Shown: piece after piece, positions 3,620 through 50,812 of the stretch
Layout of the letters: every line of letters begins with the position of its first letter
Position numbering within the stretch: the stretch's first letter is position 1
DNA from: Nitrospirales bacterium
GTDB taxonomy: Bacteria; Nitrospirota; Nitrospiria; Nitrospirales; UBA8639
Assembly (NCBI GenBank): GCA_963555755.3
Contig: OY820905.2
Location: 128,001-192,000 of the forward strand
Reading direction: 5' to 3'
DNA: 64,000 nt
Position numbers and translations under genes: made by a program
The notes under the pieces: model-generated
Databases searched by the model: none
What the model was told of the DNA's origin: nothing
What the model saw: the letters and a program-made list of their open reading frames with translations, nothing else

Positions 3620-3782
3620 ATCGATACATGAGGCACGGGTGCAGGGAAGAAGGTGTAACTCCTTCGCGGTCCCGCCGCTGTAACTGGAAACGAACCCCGC
3701 AGATGCCACTGTCAAAGACTTAGTTTTTGATGGGAAGGCGCGGGAAGTAGGTTAGGATCCAGAAGCCAGAAGACCTACCCGA
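3620..3782 (+). ncRNA. Cobalamin riboswitch 1
   Basis: AGGGAA, CCCGCCGCTGTAA, GCCACTG...TGGGAAGGC and AGCCAGAAGACC B12-box motifs upstream of the btuF-like gene; ends approximate. Confidence 0.9.
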
Positions 3783-3809
3783 GCTGAGAATGTTGTTGTC
3801 GCCCATTGG

Positions 3810-6957: not shown

Positions 6958-7140
6958 AACGGTATGTGTCGGGGAAGATGGTGAAAATCCATCACGGTGC
7001 CGCCACTGTAAGCGGGGAGTAACTCTGCAGGAAAGCCACTGGCCATAGATGTTATGCGTGAGAGGTTGTTCTCACCTACGCGCATAGGCTGGGAAGGCGC
7101 AGGGAAGTGATGATCCGCAAGTCAGGAGACCCAACAGCCG
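6958..7140 (+). ncRNA. Cobalamin riboswitch 2
   Basis: GGGGAA-GGTGAAAATCC, GCCGCCACTGTAA, GCCACTG...GGGAAGGC, AGTCAGGAGACC; cccttc/aaaggg hairpin overlaps the GGAGG SD. Confidence 0.9.
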
Positions 7141-27311: not shown

Positions 27312-27387
27312 TGGTGGCGGTGGAGGGACTTGAACCCCCGGCCCGCGGCTTATGAGTCCGCTGCTCTACCACCTGAGCTACACCGCC
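27312..27387 (-). tRNA. tRNA with CAT anticodon (probably elongator Met; Ile2 not excluded)
   Basis: GGCGGTGTAGCTCAG...CT-CAT-AA...GGTTCAAGTCC...CCGCCACCA, 76 nt; paired G1-C72 argues against initiator. Confidence 0.93.
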
Positions 27388-37979: not shown

Positions 37980-38015
37980 TACAAGGAGGAAATCACCTCT
38001 ATCCCTTAATACACA

Positions 38016-38106
38016 GGTGACAACGGCAAACTACTTGAGAGGGTAGGGCGCAAAGCCAAGAGACCTGAGTGTGGATGATAGCCATCCAAGGGTTCGTCTG
38101 GTTACC
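38016..38106 (+). ncRNA. c-di-GMP-I (GEMM) riboswitch
   Basis: P1 GGTGAC/GTTACC; GGCAAAC-stem-GAGA-stem-GGCGCAAAGCC. Confidence 0.85.
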
Positions 38107-38139
38107 GAACTGGAACTGTCTCAATTTGGTTTTGCAGTG

Positions 38140-44650: not shown

Positions 44651-45328
44651 TTATACTTTCCAAAAGAACACTGCGGCCATCCGTTTAGAGGCTATCTCGT
44701 GTCCCCAGCCAAAGTATGAACTCGCCGAATGAATCAAATCTGACTTATACGCCAGCAATCGATTGAAGACATACGACACTTCCAACATTTCCTCGAACAT
44801 CGTTGGGTCCATCTGTGAGGGGAGCCCGGGAACTTGGCTCAAGCTTTCATATTGACGTGGGCAGGCATTGCCTCCAGGCTCTTCGCCCGGGAGGTGCAGG
44901 CGATAAAATGAGGTGCCGCAATGTGGGGTTGGCGGGCTCGGATGCAAATACAGGACAGCCGCATAATCGCAGATGCTTGCGGAATCGACATGGGGACGAG
45001 CAACGCCTTCCGCACCACCACAGATTTGAATGTGATTATGTCCTGAGATACCCATGTCGGAATCACTTTGGGGTTTCAGGGATTCAATGCCTAGTCCTTT
45101 TTTCACGCAGGCTTCAATGTGGCTCAATTCGTCATCTGTTAAGGCGTGAGGTGCTCGCATCCCTGGCCAGGGTTCGGGTCTCCAGGGGGAACCTAAGGTC
45201 CAGGTGCTGTTGGCGATGCAGCGTTGTGCGACCTCCAGGGCGTTGGGCAAGACATTGTCTTCCACCCAATAATCTTTCCCGAGTTGTGGCTCACGAAAGG
45301 TCAGGTCCACTGCCATCATGTCCTCCAT
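44651..45328 (-). CDS. 2OG-Fe(II) oxygenase-like protein (DUF6445-like)
   Basis: WPGMR, PHVD, AAVLYL, GTSFY, FNRL......IHS. Confidence 0.75.
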   Translation of the reverse strand: MEDMMAVDLTFREPQLGKDYWVEDNVLPNALEVAQRCIANSTWTLGSPWRPEPWPGMRAPHALTDDELSHIEACVKKGLGIESLKPQSDSDMGISGHNHIQICGGAEGVARPHVDSASICDYAAVLYLHPSPPTPHCGTSFYRLHLPGEEPGGNACPRQYESLSQVPGLPSQMDPTMFEEMLEVSYVFNRLLAYKSDLIHSASSYFGWGHEIASKRMAAVFFWKV

Positions 45329-45538
45329 TGCTGGCCGAGCTGTGGGAAAAAGATTTGCCTGTTTAGTCGTGACTTGTCAGAATGGCAGGATAATCAGGGG
45401 CTTCTCATTGGGTCAAGGATTGGCCTAATCGTGGTGTGAATTGGGACTCTTGATGTTCTCGTGTCGCACAGGGTAGATCAGCGAGCAAACCCGACATAGA
45501 CGATTTACCGCTTAAGCCAAAGGGCAAGAAGGGGGATC

Positions 45539-46279
45539 ATGCAAGAAGGGGTTCTGGACAGCGTTTCACAGGAATTGAACAATGCCATTGCTCGGTATCC
45601 CGATGAATCGATAGTCAAGACCTACCTTGACCAAGGTGAGTTTTTTTCAATTGATCAGTTCTTGCCGCAAGAGGTCATCGACCAATTCATGATCGAAGTC
45701 GAAACTGTCCGCCCCCGGCTAAACCGCAACTACGTCCCGACTCATAAAAAGGGGGGCAGTGTCAGTCATTATCTGCTACGCCAATCAGCACCATCCATTT
45801 TAGCGTTCTACCGCTCTCCAGCGTTCATCGAGTGGTTAAGCCGAATCTCAGGAGAGCCATTACAAATCTGTCCCGACGATGATCCCCATGCCTGCGCCCT
45901 GTATTTTTATACCGAAGCGGGCGATCATATTGGCTGGCACTACGATACCTCCTATTACAACGGCGCCCGATATACCGTGCTGCTCGGTCTGGTGGATCGA
46001 TCCACTAGTCGGTTAAAATGCCGCCTGCACACCAAAGAACCAGGTCGTGAAGTGCAGGAATTAAGCCTCTCAACCGATCCAGGCCTGTTGATTTTTTTCA
46101 ACGGCGACAAACTCCACCACGCGGTCACACCATCGGGTGAGGGAGAAGAACGCATCGTGCTCACGCTGGAATACGTGACAGACCCCACCATGAGTCCTGC
46201 TAAGCGTTGGTATTCCAATTTAAAAGATGCCTTTGGCTACTTCGGTCTGCCAGCTCTTCTTCGCCAATCAGGAAAATAA
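45539..46279 (+). CDS. 2OG-Fe(II) oxygenase
   Basis: GDHIGWHYD, H.VTP......R. Confidence 0.85.
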   Translation: MQEGVLDSVSQELNNAIARYPDESIVKTYLDQGEFFSIDQFLPQEVIDQFMIEVETVRPRLNRNYVPTHKKGGSVSHYLLRQSAPSILAFYRSPAFIEWLSRISGEPLQICPDDDPHACALYFYTEAGDHIGWHYDTSYYNGARYTVLLGLVDRSTSRLKCRLHTKEPGREVQELSLSTDPGLLIFFNGDKLHHAVTPSGEGEERIVLTLEYVTDPTMSPAKRWYSNLKDAFGYFGLPALLRQSGK

Positions 46280-46374: not shown

Positions 46375-46568
46375 ATGAACTGTCCTCTTTGTGGAAATGA
46401 AGGGAATCTTTGTGAGTCGCATGTTGTTCCCGAGTTCTTATTCAAACCAGCCTACGACACAAGTCATCGTCTAAAATTCTTCAATAGGGGCAGCTCCGGT
46501 TCGCGGATTTTTCAGAAGGGATTTCATTCCAAGTTGCTCTGTCTTTCTTGTGAAAAATTTTGTTGGGG
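46375..46568 (+). pseudogene. Truncated Zn-binding (HNH-like) gene
   Basis: CPLC...SHVVP...LLC..CE, cut off at the repeat/intron site. Confidence 0.55.
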
Positions 46569-48541
46569 GTAGAGTAGAGCACTGGTGCTCATCCTGGAGC
46601 TGCTCTCGAACGTTTCGGCGCACGCGCCTACTCCGGGCCAGAGCAGTCAGAAATAACCAGCGCTCCCTCATCAAACCGTGCATGCGGTTTTCTCGCACAC
46701 GGCTTTCCGATGTTCTTCAGGCCAAGGCATGCGCCGAGCGCCAGCCCGGTCCCACAGGAACCTTGTACAGCCCGTAACGCCCGTAAAGATCAGCATGCGG
46801 GAAGCGGCCTAGGCCGCTTCGTCGATCCTTCACCTTATGGCGTTTCATCAAGTGAGTTCGCAGCCGGGCTTCCGCATGGTTTCTGACCTTGTTCATCGCC
46901 AGACTTGAGTTACGATAGTGGAAATAGTTCGCCCACCCTTTCAGGCTGCGATTGACCGTTCCCACGATAGCACTCAAGGGAATGGCAGTCAGTTCCCGTT
47001 GTGTTAGTGCCGTCAGCCTCGCCTTGATTTTCTTCAGCGATGGCTCCGACGGACGAACATTCGGGTACGGTTTCCCAGAACGTCCCCCTCGACTCAGCTG
47101 AATCGTAAAACCCAGGAAGTCGAAGCTCGCTTGGGTGGCGTCCACGATAGTCGTCTTGGTCTCGTTGAGCGTGAGGCCCAATCGTGCCAGTACGGCTCGC
47201 ACCACCTTCAGCGGTTCCACGACATCTTTTCGGCACAGCACGACAAAGTCGTCTGCGTAGCGCACGAGGTGCGCTTGCAGCTTGTCTTTGAGGTGCCGCC
47301 GTTGCCATAGCCGATCCAACTGGTGTAGGTAGCAGTTGGCCAATAGCGGTGAGAGCACCCCGCCTTGCGGCGTGCCTTTGCTGTTGGCATTCCCGCCACC
47401 CACACCCCGCTTCACGCCGTTGTCGTCTTCACCAATGACCGGGGCTTTGAGCCACAGCTTGATGAGGTGCAAGATGCCACCGTCAACAATGCGCTCAGCG
47501 ACCATGGCCAGCAGCTTGGCATGCGGGATACTGTCGAAGTAGTTCGACAGGTCGGCGTCTATGACGTGGGTGTAGCCTGCCCAGAGCGTATGGGCAATGT
47601 CGTTCACCGCATCATGGGCCGATCGCTTGGGCCGGAATCCGTACGAATTCGCACAGAAGTCGGCTTCAAAGATCGGCTCGATGATGAGCTTGACTGCCAT
47701 TTGCGCCACTCGGTCTCGGATCGTCGGGATCCCTAGCGGACGCAGACTGCCGTCCGCTTTGCGTATCATGACGCGCCGCACCGGTTGGGCTCGGTAGGTC
47801 TTGGCTTTCAGATCACGGGCCAATTCCCGCAGAAACGTGTCTACCCCGATTCCACTCTCTATGGCCTTGAAGCTGATCCCATCACTACCGGGGCTGCCTC
47901 GATTGGCTCGGACAAGCCGCCAGGCATGATTGAGGATATCCTCCTGGCTGATCTTGTCGTAGAGTGCGTAAAAGCGATAGGCCGGTTCTTGCTTGGCCTT
48001 GGCATACAGCTTCCTCTGCAGCGTCCTGATCGTCTCCGGGGTGGTTAGCGCCATGGCAATCCCCTGATCCTCCGCTCTTCGGTTGCATGAACAAAGCAGG
48101 GTTCCTTCCCTCGACCGGGGTTGTGTTGTCCCTCGGCCTCAAGCGGTACTATGAACCCCTCCGACTCCCGTTCCGGGCCGCTGTGATTTCGTGGCCTTAT
48201 ACACATTGGTCGGTGTCCTCCCCACCCCCAAAACGGGTCTCCAGCACTGGGCTATACGTCTTCCAGAACATGCCGTCCTTGCTACCCCGGGAGTCGATGG
48301 GTGTCACTTCCGTTATTCCAGCACCCTTCCAGCGGCCTTCCCCTTCTGACCACAGGGTCGGCGTCTCCACTTTGTTTACGAGGCTACTCATAGGTTCACT
48401 TGCGTTACGGCCTGCTCTTTTGCTGTGTGGAAACTTACGACCCCGCGTTACCACGACGCCGCTTCCTCATGCTACCAAGGTGTACGGACAATTCCTTGGA
48501 CGGGACTTTAACCCGCTAGACATACTGCTGTTACTGCGAAC
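46569..48541 (-). mobile_element. Complete group II intron (IIB-like)
   Basis: 5' GTTCG at 48541; DV AAGCCGTGTGCG...CGCATGCACGGTTT (~46673-46705); 3' CTCTAC at 46569; ligated exons recreate the adjacent 20-bp repeat. Confidence 0.92.
46717..48054 (-). CDS. ltrA: Group II intron RT/maturase without an endonuclease domain
   Basis: RPLGIPT.RDR, GTPQGG..SP, RYADD, GW..YF. Confidence 0.95.
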   Translation of the reverse strand: MALTTPETIRTLQRKLYAKAKQEPAYRFYALYDKISQEDILNHAWRLVRANRGSPGSDGISFKAIESGIGVDTFLRELARDLKAKTYRAQPVRRVMIRKADGSLRPLGIPTIRDRVAQMAVKLIIEPIFEADFCANSYGFRPKRSAHDAVNDIAHTLWAGYTHVIDADLSNYFDSIPHAKLLAMVAERIVDGGILHLIKLWLKAPVIGEDDNGVKRGVGGGNANSKGTPQGGVLSPLLANCYLHQLDRLWQRRHLKDKLQAHLVRYADDFVVLCRKDVVEPLKVVRAVLARLGLTLNETKTTIVDATQASFDFLGFTIQLSRGGRSGKPYPNVRPSEPSLKKIKARLTALTQRELTAIPLSAIVGTVNRSLKGWANYFHYRNSSLAMNKVRNHAEARLRTHLMKRHKVKDRRSGLGRFPHADLYGRYGLYKVPVGPGWRSAHALA

Positions 48542-48571
48542 GGTCAGGTCTTGTGTTGGGGGGTCAGGTCT

Positions 48572-50040
48572 CAATACTGTTCACTTAGATGAAAATCTGT
48601 TATACTTCGCCTCCACACGTAATCTGGGAGGAGGCAACATGGCAAGAAAGAAAGTCGGCTTGGGGGCGGGGGCTCGATTGGCGGATTATTTGAGCACGGG
48701 ATTACTGGCTCGTGCCTTTCCGGTGGCCATCATCAACGAAGAACTTGACGCACATCATTGTAACAGTGAACGTGTCCGCACCTTTCCCGCTTCTGCCGTG
48801 GTGTACTACACCATGGCGTTGAGCTTATACAGCGAGGCCGCGTACGAAGCGGTGTTTGCCGCTGTGGCCCAAGGGCTGGCATGGAAAGACCACAAACCCG
48901 TTGCTCCCGTGACCGTTGTCAAATCAGCCATCAGCAAAGCCCGCTCACGGCTGACGTGGAAGGCGCTGAAAGCCATTGGACAGCGCTGCTTGCGCCCGTT
49001 GGCTCGTCCAGAGCATGCCCACGCCTTTTTTGCAGGCTACCGACTCGTCGCGATAGATGGCTCCAACTTTGAGGTCCCGGATGAGGAAGCCAATGTGCAA
49101 GTCTTTGGGTACCCAGGGAGCCGAACCGGGCAGGCCGGCTACCCCCAAGCCCAGTGCGCCATTTTGACGGAATGTGCCAGTCACGCCATTTTGGATGCCG
49201 AACTAGGGGCCTATAAGCAGGCCGAATGGGAGGTGGCCGCGCCCTTGGTGCGTCGCCTCACGCCCGACATGCTCTGCATGGCCGATCGCGGCTTTGTCGG
49301 GTACGCCCATTGGCAGGCCGGCCTTCAGACCGGAGCGCAACTACTCTGGCGCATGCCGAAGAGCTTGATCCTTCCAGTTGACAAGCTGTTGGACGATGGC
49401 TCGTACCTGAGCCATCTGTATCCCAGTGAACGCGCCAGAAGAAAGCGAATTGATGGGATCGCCATCAGGGTGATTGAGTATGTCTTACCGCAGGGGCCCA
49501 ATAGCGAACCGCTGTACCGTCTCGTCACCACGCTGCTGGATGACCAAGGCGCACCCGCCCAGGACCTGGCTCAACTGTATCACGAGCGCTGGGAGGTGGA
49601 ATTGGTGTTTGATGAGCTGAAGACGCACCTGAGGCAACGTCGTCGCGTCCTGCGCAGTAAAACGCCAGAGTTGGTGCGTCAAGAGTTCTACGGATGGGTG
49701 ATGGCCCACTACGCCGTGCGCTGGTTGATGTATCAAGGGGCCACCCAGGCAGACATCCCTGACCGCACGGTATCTTTTACGGCCACGGTGCAGTTAGTGC
49801 GTCGAACCCTGCCCCAATCTGGGGCCCTTCCCCCCTGAGCGCCAAAAAACATGGTATCGGCTGCTGTTTGAGGCGACGGCGAAACTGTTGTGTGAATCCA
49901 GTCGTGGAAAAATCAAGCCGAGGATGGTGAAACGCCGAAACTCTCCATACGCACCGTACAAACGTCCGAGACCGCCCGTTGCGCAAATTGACTGGACACC
50001 ATCCATCAAACCACCGAAGATATCTAAGTGAACAGTATTG
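48572..50040 (+). mobile_element. IS4-family element
   Basis: 19-bp perfect ends caatactgttcacttagat; 10-bp duplication GGTCAGGTCT (48562-48571, 50041-50050). Confidence 0.95.
48639..49838 (+). CDS. IS4-family transposase (possible +1 extension to 50031)
   Basis: GGAGG-ATG; AIDGS, ADRGF, Y-x2-R-x3-E-x6-K. Confidence 0.93.
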   Translation: MARKKVGLGAGARLADYLSTGLLARAFPVAIINEELDAHHCNSERVRTFPASAVVYYTMALSLYSEAAYEAVFAAVAQGLAWKDHKPVAPVTVVKSAISKARSRLTWKALKAIGQRCLRPLARPEHAHAFFAGYRLVAIDGSNFEVPDEEANVQVFGYPGSRTGQAGYPQAQCAILTECASHAILDAELGAYKQAEWEVAAPLVRRLTPDMLCMADRGFVGYAHWQAGLQTGAQLLWRMPKSLILPVDKLLDDGSYLSHLYPSERARRKRIDGIAIRVIEYVLPQGPNSEPLYRLVTTLLDDQGAPAQDLAQLYHERWEVELVFDELKTHLRQRRRVLRSKTPELVRQEFYGWVMAHYAVRWLMYQGATQADIPDRTVSFTATVQLVRRTLPQSGALPP

Positions 50041-50155
50041 GGTCAGGTCTTGCAATGCAACATCAAAACGACTTTGCGGGGTAGACATGAATATTGAGTT
50101 ATTAATTCAGGTGGAAAAGGAGTCATCCTGAAGCGGTCCCTTTTTTCCGTTGCCA

Positions 50156-50575
50156 TCATGAAGGAAGGTTCTTGGGACCGAACACCACTAGTTGGGGGAA
50201 ATACGTCTGGTATTGCTGCCTATCGCGGGTGAGAAGGGGAAGACCCTCCACGGAGGCATGGGCTCCAATATAAAAATCTGGCAGAGGTGACCGTTTGGCC
50301 CCCTTTCGTTTTCTGTATTGAAGAAACACTTTTCCAGCTAAAAACAAAGCTTCTTTGGGGATGGGTCGCATGGTCAAACCTCCCTCCATCAGGGCGTGTT
50401 CTAAATCTTCAATTCGGGCAAATCCTATAGAGATTTCCGAGTAAATAATGGGGTTAATGTACAAGTCATAAGAGGCCTCATGGGAGGTTAATTGTTTTTC
50501 CGACCACGTTCCCCATTGCGGATCATCGACAAATACATCCAGAAGAATATTGGAATCCACCAATAATCCGTTCAC
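50156..50575 (-). CDS. vapC: PIN-domain toxin
   Basis: LVDSNILLD, PDFYIGAHA, LLTRD. Confidence 0.9.
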   Translation of the reverse strand: MNGLLVDSNILLDVFVDDPQWGTWSEKQLTSHEASYDLYINPIIYSEISIGFARIEDLEHALMEGGLTMRPIPKEALFLAGKVFLQYRKRKGAKRSPLPDFYIGAHASVEGLPLLTRDRQQYQTYFPQLVVFGPKNLPS

Positions 50576-50796
50576 CGATTCCCCCGCGTTAATCGTAAAA
50601 TCTCATCGGTGGTCATTCGCACTTTTCCTATCCCTCGCAGGTTTCGAAATCGTGTAGTGGCTTTCTCTGTTTCCCCTTTTTTTACAATCACACGCCCCTT
50701 TTCTTCCACAAACTCCACTTCCGAGTGACTGGATAATCCAAGTTTCTTTCGGATATGGAGAGGAATGGTTACCTGTCCCTTGCTTGTTAACCGCAT
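50572..50796 (-). CDS. vapB: AbrB/MazE-type antitoxin
   Basis: TSKGQVTIP..IR..LG; 4-bp overlap with the toxin. Confidence 0.9.
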   Translation of the reverse strand: MRLTSKGQVTIPLHIRKKLGLSSHSEVEFVEEKGRVIVKKGETEKATTRFRNLRGIGKVRMTTDEILRLTRGNR

Positions 50797-50812
50797 AGCC
50801 CACCTCCTGTTG

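Follow-up and report, generated by a model that had tools for sequence, protein, structure and literature searches.

Why should a group II intron and an insertion sequence (IS) of the IS4 family, two unrelated elements, occupy neighbouring copies of the same short repeat? The question is raised by positions 46561..50063 of a 64,000-nt stretch of DNA from a Nitrospirales bacterium (GCA_963555755.3, contig OY820905.2, 128,001-192,000, forward strand), referred to here as the window, in which the plain coordinates of the locus are counted. A minus-strand group II intron and a plus-strand IS4 element are there neighbours in tandem copies of a 20-bp unit. We consider it probable that the repeat is a solo terminal inverted repeat (TIR) of a TIRYT element, the outer end of which was duplicated once and subsequently hit by the intron and by the IS4 element, each of them likely finding the core GG|GGTCAR (the bar marks the insertion boundary) by its own means. 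As judged from sequence, both families likely spread by using the ends of this third element as landing sites, here and in many other bacteria. The locus is made up as follows.

46561..46568, plus strand: outer part of tandem unit 1, made up of outside flank and the two leading G of the TIR; read on the minus strand, it is the intron 3' exon, with C at 46568 as intron-binding site 3 (IBS3)
46569..48541, minus strand: group II intron of 1973 nt, class F-like and probably g4, placed by Rfam matches and termini
46569..46707, minus strand: intron domains V-VI, with a bulged A at -7 and a 5-nt domain V (DV) loop
46717..48054, minus strand: intron-encoded reverse transcriptase (RT)/maturase, 445 aa, YADD, in which no endonuclease domain was found
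48346..48351, minus strand: exon-binding site 1 (EBS1; GGUCAG) in the domain Id3 loop
48369..48378, minus strand: A-rich loop at the EBS2 position, with no pairing of at least 4 nt to exon positions -7 to -16
48542..48553, plus strand: inner part of tandem unit 1 (truncated TIR copy), of which 48542-48547 is IBS1 on the minus strand
48554..48571, plus strand: tandem unit 2 as far as the IS, ending in the left 10-bp direct repeat (48562-48571)
48572..50040, plus strand: IS4-family, IS4-subgroup element, 1469 bp, with 19-bp TIRs
48639..49838, plus strand: DDE transposase, 399 aa (Nterm_IS4 and DDE_Tnp_1), with Y(2)R(3)E(6)K at residue 314
50041..50063, plus strand: right direct repeat (50041-50050), then the inner part of the solo TIRYT TIR, 15/17 inner bases of which are those of the TIR of the TIRYT gene at locus L144

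When both elements are excised in silico, what is left is the 20-bp unit twice in tandem and, after it, the inner part of the repeat, so that the intron limits, the IS4 element and the doubled unit given by the original prediction, which had been made from the sequence alone, are borne out base for base. The same prediction regarded the 20-bp tandem as a landing motif, and this part did not survive: the uninterrupted 20-mer has 0 occurrences genome-wide and is thus itself no recurrent landing pad. The tandem is instead a locus-specific duplication of a TIR end, and the shared target is a 10-11-nt core rather than the 20-mer. Intron and IS boundaries coincide at GG|GG, where the decamer duplicated by the IS also starts, in either orientation. 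Since Logan contigs from runs X1 and X2 span both flanks and continue into the elements, the locus is no assembly artefact.

The repeat had tentatively been taken for a repetitive extragenic palindromic (REP)-like motif of the kind found near Y1 transposases. The connection with a Y1 element stood, the repeat being a TIRYT TIR, but it is not the REP-like motif of a canonical RAYT system: by inspection, the target is a linear TIR end without a REP hairpin, i.e., without a GTAG- or CGTC-tagged stem-loop. It corresponds to the GGGGWSAS TIR of TIRYT elements, whose consensus and TIRYT/TIRtron arrangement are given in the covered part of PMC3733652, and which are equated with TnpA-Y1 subclass 2.1 in that of PMC6006769. 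Among the 17 Y1_Tnp matches in the genome, several are long genes lying between inverted repeats that start with GGGGTCA, the TGA of the right repeat often being the stop codon, and a search from eleven seeds yielded about 180 TIRYT ends. Beyond GGGG, mini-elements of 134-140 bp share an identical 4 nt, at both ends and at unrelated sites. The TIR family of the window bounds an intact TIRYT gene (Y1_Tnp plus helix-turn-helix, HTH) at L144, in the right TIR of which an IS copy sits; a gene remnant 83% identical to the L144 gene adjoins an IS copy at C1:359846-360130. At the window locus itself, neither a partner TIR nor a TIRYT gene was found, and tblastn gave no match near C1:178050; the repeat of the window is a solo TIR end. 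The mini-elements also form clusters, with intervals between them ranging from a few hundred bases to a few kb, at G000:C1:88394-96832, 4096387-4106365, and 2217848-2226477; these may bracket gene cassettes.

Regarding the IS, it has 19-bp perfect TIRs flanked by 10-bp direct repeats and agrees with the published definition of subgroup IS4 (PMC2266710) in its Y(2)R(3)E(6)K signature, single open reading frame (ORF), length within 1400-1650 bp, -AATR...WTW ends and direct repeats within 10-13 bp. The genome holds 21 copies, 98-100% identical, and all 21 show the 10-bp duplication, which is exactly GGTCAGGTCT in 15, differs from it by 1-2 mismatches in 5 and by 3 in the remaining one; the orientation relative to the decamer is even (10 vs 11). 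In the genome emptied of the element, 15 of the 34 exact decamer sites are occupied. IS copies are found in 11 of the 16 listed ends of the L144-type TIR family. Against a TIR library built solely from TIRYT gene ends, with at least 12/17 matching bases beyond the core counted as a match, 13/21 IS targets match vs 139/1490 genomic G|GGTCAR sites with the same 7-nt core, and in one contig of run X9 an IS end is attached to the right TIR of a TIRYT element, a TIR unoccupied in G000. Since the IS is also found in decamers that are not TIRs, its transposase would read the sequence directly. Among 80 metagenomic relatives, the ends of which were found in 38/64 loci at ≥55% identity and in 14/16 loci at 44-48%, the former have 43/57 flanks within 2 mismatches of the decamer, whereas the latter (L138, L145-L159) have 0/24 within 3 mismatches and flanks centred on CTAG/CTAA, pointing to a different target specificity inside the same subgroup. 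Both IS ends in the window (48572 and 50040) begin with C, so that each IS insertion leaves two intact IBS1+IBS3 sites and the IS would multiply intron targets; among the genome copies, no such site at an IS end is occupied by an intron.

The intron lineage displays the same preference. Its 17 5' ends in this genome (two window-like copies, three at 88-93%, three with a 60%-identical RT, seven ORF-less outer introns and two stubs) are all preceded by YTGACC, and C directly follows all 17 of the 3' ends found (CC in 16). By the library criterion given above, 11/17 intron targets are TIRYT ends, again vs 139/1490 genomic sites, and three more fall in a further repeated family. The hairpin loop at 48346-48351, predicted as EBS1, indeed pairs 6/6 with the last six bases of the 5' exon. 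With 21/21 IS copies and 17/17 intron 5' ends in the same motif class, the co-location of the two elements is no chance event. Other copies of both thus lie in the same motif and not in unrelated sequence, and the motif is multi-copy, not single-copy.

Outside this genome, junctions were drawn from 79 related loci and follow-up searches. Scoring covered the 31 5' junctions in which 6 nt or more of exon was available, and 29 of them are within one mismatch of GGWSA(S/A). EBS1 could be located in 29 external introns, pairing 6/6 in 24, and its third base agrees with the T or A of the target in 27 (14 T, 13 A), each state being present in both main subclades. At five external loci the intron adjoins a TIRYT gene, starting 2 nt past the stop codon (L013, L018) or lying inside the upstream TIR (L011, L042, L208). 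Some of the external loci share sites (L035/L036, L026/L028), and labels of metagenome-assembled genomes (MAGs) may be misbinned. That two unrelated elements target the repeat of a third is hence supported here and in other genomes. The presence of Y1 genes in 5/5 intron-bearing genomes was set aside as uninformative, 6/14 controls being positive as well and many matches being IS200-type.

It can be asked whether such a distribution calls for any specialization on TIRs. Short intrinsic preferences combined with purifying selection could leave intergenic copies only, and the motif in intergenic DNA would mostly be TIRYT ends: repeated ends make up 39% of the G|GGTCAR sites that lie outside long ORFs and 57% of those preceded by GG, some intron and IS targets are not TIRs, and the IS is absent from all 78 ends of the GGTCAAATCT type. 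This explanation is unlikely, considering that EBS1 is confined to GGWSA(S/A) down to about 50-60% RT identity in several phyla, with sister lineages using other targets, and that five external introns adjoin TIRYT genes. Moreover, EBS1 and EBS3 together define 1530 genomic sites, too many to account alone for the intron locations (10/14 vs 22%, P about 1e-4), and RYY at -9 to -7 is present in 14/14 complete insertions vs 22% of all EBS1+EBS3 sites and 45% of non-coding GG sites.

The duplication of the TIR end tells of the TIRYT element itself. TIR ends commonly carry perfect tandem duplications, most of which contain neither intron nor IS. With periods ranging from 10 to 60 nt, the outermost units match 8-10 nt upstream of TCA, i.e., 4-6 nt outside GGGG, in 41/46 cases, although short periods partly force a match with a fixed start. 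For the long units (period of at least 16), 15/16 match 8-12 nt upstream of TCA vs 4.5 expected, a result reached in 0 of 200,000 simulations; these 16 units were hand-picked, arrays of two unrelated repeats being excluded. The start of the tandem unit coincides with the element boundary, and at three loci of another genome (G154/G151; L207, L213, L233) units begin 6-9 nt outside GGGG. GGGTC-containing arrays with periods of 19-21 that do not match TIR families were left out of this test; they are found at G000:C1:3382573-3382755, 4433235-4433273, 2203978, and 1729308. In the window, the last bases of unit 1 are those of the uninterrupted TIR, and the start that the intron splits in unit 1 is still whole in unit 2, which makes the duplication older than both insertions. 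HUH enzymes form a 5'-phosphotyrosine and leave a free 3'-OH. A fixed 5' start with a variable 3' end fits an HUH nick, displacement synthesis and re-ligation, which suggests that the fixed-start end duplications reflect an HUH nick at the element boundary. The strand bias of the tandem arrays is not significant (44/62, P=0.12).

A more trivial origin of the 20-bp tandem would be one of the insertions or replication slippage, unrelated to TIRYT. G-runs are slippage-prone, and no TIRYT gene or remnant adjoins the window site. Such an origin is nevertheless very improbable, since most tandem TIR ends hold neither intron nor IS, unit starts stay fixed over the whole range of periods, and the TIR bases at the end of unit 1 make it older than the IS.

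Group II hallmarks are all present in the intron (domains I-VI, the DV catalytic hairpin, a bulged A in domain VI and an AY end). It starts with GTTCG and ends with CTAC, the GTTCG 5' end in place of GUGYG being a clade-wide trait, and Rfam matches within it are RF02005 at 48275-48509 and RF00029 at 46569-46707. A second copy, at C1:1424092-1426065, is 99.7% identical. The 445-aa ORF has RVT_1 and GIIM domains only, no endonuclease family being matched in the domain search. Class F (IIF) features are present, as the RT groups with former class F members and the DV loop has 5 nt; in a quick tree in which three long branches were flagged, the RT clade is sister to Ni.ha.I1 (g3), with modest support of 84 for the clade and 87 for the sister position in the Shimodaira-Hasegawa-like approximate likelihood ratio test (SH-aLRT). 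From its size, its hosts and its position beside g3, the intron group is probably g4 of class F. The loop at the EBS2 position, parsed in 24/43 introns, does not pair consistently with exon -7 to -16, and the idea that EBS2 tracks the TIR family was dropped for this inconsistency. Within the order the intron is rare, being detected in 4/150 other genomes at E <= 1e-80. Domain VI (window 46569-46707) has a long structured insertion that is missing in many relatives and takes other forms in others.

Several copies of the lineage are twintrons. All seven ORF-less (746-nt) copies hold an unrelated RT-encoding intron of 1994 nt in domain V, three being in tandem at one site (G000:C1:2357-5096 and six more positions, e.g., 1379146-1381885 and 2159913-2166640), and no uninterrupted ORF-less copy was found in the genome. 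The 1994-nt intron also occupies domain V in full-length copies and in a further intron family. The count of three TIR-targeting RT lineages was accordingly rejected, 'Family C' being the 746-nt ORF-less outer intron with the 1994-nt intron in its domain V. From junctions read by eye, a separate RT clade (45-52% identity; L048-L062, L069; Bacteroidota, Ignavibacteriota, Chloroflexota, Bacillota) seems to have its insertion site at YTG|YG, within a different family of tandem/inverted intergenic repeats. A suspected tie of these repeats to GxxExxY genes found no support (0/12 neighbouring ORFs, and no short GxxExxY-like ORF in 14 loci).

How an intron with no recognizable endonuclease is primed bears directly on the role of the TIRYT enzyme. 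With the fork direction inferred from GC skew, 15/17 intron copies are co-directional with the fork vs 69/176 available sites, and five other intron families show 12/12 such copies; the lineage favours a lagging-strand template, like ordinary endonuclease-less introns. The alternative is that TIRYT is an active partner, which by binding or nicking the TIR end makes it accessible to intron and IS alike, the free 3'-OH then priming intron reverse transcription. This 3'-OH, 4-6 nt outside GGGG, would correspond to +6 to +8 of the intron 3' exon on the antisense strand and would substitute for the missing endonuclease. The nick geometry suggested by the tandem ends suits an antisense-strand primer, the GG|GG boundary is common to intron and IS, EBS2 pairing does not account for the specificity, and two intron copies, that of the window included, are head-on. 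However, the lagging-template bias is the prediction of fork priming (PMC4615759, covered in part), the IS occupies non-TIR decamers too, and the nick is itself deduced from tandem arrays that show no significant strand bias. We retain this alternative as quite unlikely and, because of the strand bias, disfavour the TIRYT nick as the main intron primer. Taken to its full extent, it would turn TIRYT ends into an actively nicked hub, where unrelated mobile elements have converged and the HUH nick leaves the fixed-start duplications, lays open the GG|GGTCAR core to a DDE transposase as well as to the EBS2-less intron clade, and provides the intron with its 3'-OH primer. This picture is equally doubtful; if true, it would be a case of a retroelement borrowing the nuclease of a third party.

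Under the reading that we favour, in which intron and IS each reach the core of a duplicated solo TIR end by their own means, the intron would reverse-splice into the C-rich strand by EBS1 and EBS3 without EBS2. Recognition of exon positions -9 to -7 and +2 by its protein would probably add to the specificity, and priming may take place on the nascent lagging strand as for other endonuclease-less introns. The IS transposase would read the decamer directly, and the tandem may have arisen from a TIRYT nick 4-6 nt outside GGGG followed by strand-displacement copying and re-ligation. Both invaders would benefit from TIR ends that are plentiful, mainly intergenic and dispersed by another element. 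The repeat was originally called a safe haven; such a role may be envisaged for the site, which in the sequence falls in a 424-bp gap between convergent genes.

A number of results weigh against this reading. RYY at -9 to -7 fails at many external intron sites, so that protein read-out of these positions is no clade-wide rule. Once an 11-nt preference is allowed for, the TIR enrichment is not significant (10/14 repeated vs a baseline of 128/189, P=0.51), nor is it among non-coding GG sites (P=0.21); as the 11-nt preference suffices for the enrichment, reading of sequence and recognition of the element are inseparable in these data. Intron targets at C1:1691099 and 2543602 and IS targets at 2782804 and 4599189 are not recognizable TIRs. 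The sites are non-independent owing to shared TIR families, twintrons and related MAGs, the clade support in the quick tree is modest (SH-aLRT 84), and the window intron is one of the two head-on exceptions to the strand bias. Finally, no spliced-exon or empty-site joint was present in the contigs of two RNA and two other runs (X1, X2, X9, X13), the search being confined to contigs and the RNA runs having hardly any coverage of the flanks.

Targeting of REP sequences by IS and of IS repeats by introns is already published (PMC1525189, PMC4615759; both covered in part, as are all the papers compared here). The TIRYT/TIRtron papers (Di Nocera, 2013, PMC3733652; Quentin, 2018, PMC6006769) describe the same Y1 HUH gene with a C-terminal HTH and GGGGWSAS TIRs, and TIR families repeated as singles, dimers and clusters; in contrast to the present data, their covered parts make no mention of introns or IS in TIRs, of fixed-start end duplications or of a boundary 4 nt outside GGGG, and the word 'intron' has 0 occurrences in that of PMC3733652. 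In the literature covered, outside which lie most subscription journals as well as the intron database and ISfinder, only two papers make relevant use of the term 'TIRYT', and no publication describing introns or IS inside the TIRs of TIRYT elements was found.

The closest intron is RmInt2 of Sinorhizobium meliloti, which is endonuclease-less, targets the inverted repeats of ISRm17 and has a lagging-strand bias (PMC4615759). It differs in being of class D, in using EBS2 and in exploiting one DDE IS in one strain, whereas the present clade is class F-like, shows no evident EBS2 pairing and uses a short motif of many HUH-element TIR families across phyla. Fork priming has been described for RmInt1 and RmInt2 (PMC4615759), with which the strand bias observed here agrees. 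Class F (IIF) g4 introns such as Pe.ca.I3 have an RT-X protein of about 445 aa and an intron length of about 1.97-1.99 kb (Toro, 2013, PMC3552965), and likewise share the 5-nt DV loop, the host groups and the sister position to g3 (PMC3552965; Nagy, 2013, PMC3753933). Class F introns tested by Nagy (2013) have an apparent EBS2-IBS2 helix, which is missing in the present clade, and no target specialization is given for g4 introns in the covered parts of these two papers. Class C (IIC) introns located behind terminators or attC sites (PMC12584367, PMC8919778) also combine short EBS pairing with a second cue and a recurrent intergenic feature, but the present intron has a 6-bp EBS1, an F-like RT and RNA, and sites that require no upstream hairpin as far as seen.

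With regard to the IS, REP-targeting elements (ISRm22 of the IS4 family, ISPpu9/10, ISPa11, ISPsy8, IS1397, IS621) similarly have every copy at a single position within a small repeat that belongs to another system (Tobes and Pareja, 2006, PMC1525189), whereas the present target is a non-palindromic TIR end and not the axis of a REP hairpin, and its boundary is shared with an intron. Unlike the window IS, which belongs to subgroup IS4, ISRm22 belongs to IS4Sa (PMC2266710). What the present locus adds is an intron clade and an IS4 clade sharing a boundary, an EBS1 confined to GGWSAS throughout a clade, and the signature of end duplication. A widespread class F-like intron clade and an IS4 clade would thereby gain a defined and common natural target, RNA-guided and protein-guided targeting converging on one short motif of a third element. 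As far as the literature covered goes, the proposal that TIRYT elements end 4-5 nt outside GGGG and that tandem ends mark the cut site is the first concrete prediction on these enzymes. An intron seemingly needing 6+1 base pairs and a short extra cue would also be easily retargeted as a laboratory tool.

The surroundings of the locus comprise two 2OG-Fe(II)-type genes upstream (window 44651-46279) and, immediately downstream (50156-50799), a PIN-domain gene with a MazE/AbrB-type partner forming a VapBC-like pair. Elsewhere in the window, three riboswitches, two of them for cobalamin and one of the c-di-GMP-I class, and a tRNA are found at 3620-3796, 6971-7132, 38015-38109, and 27315-27387.

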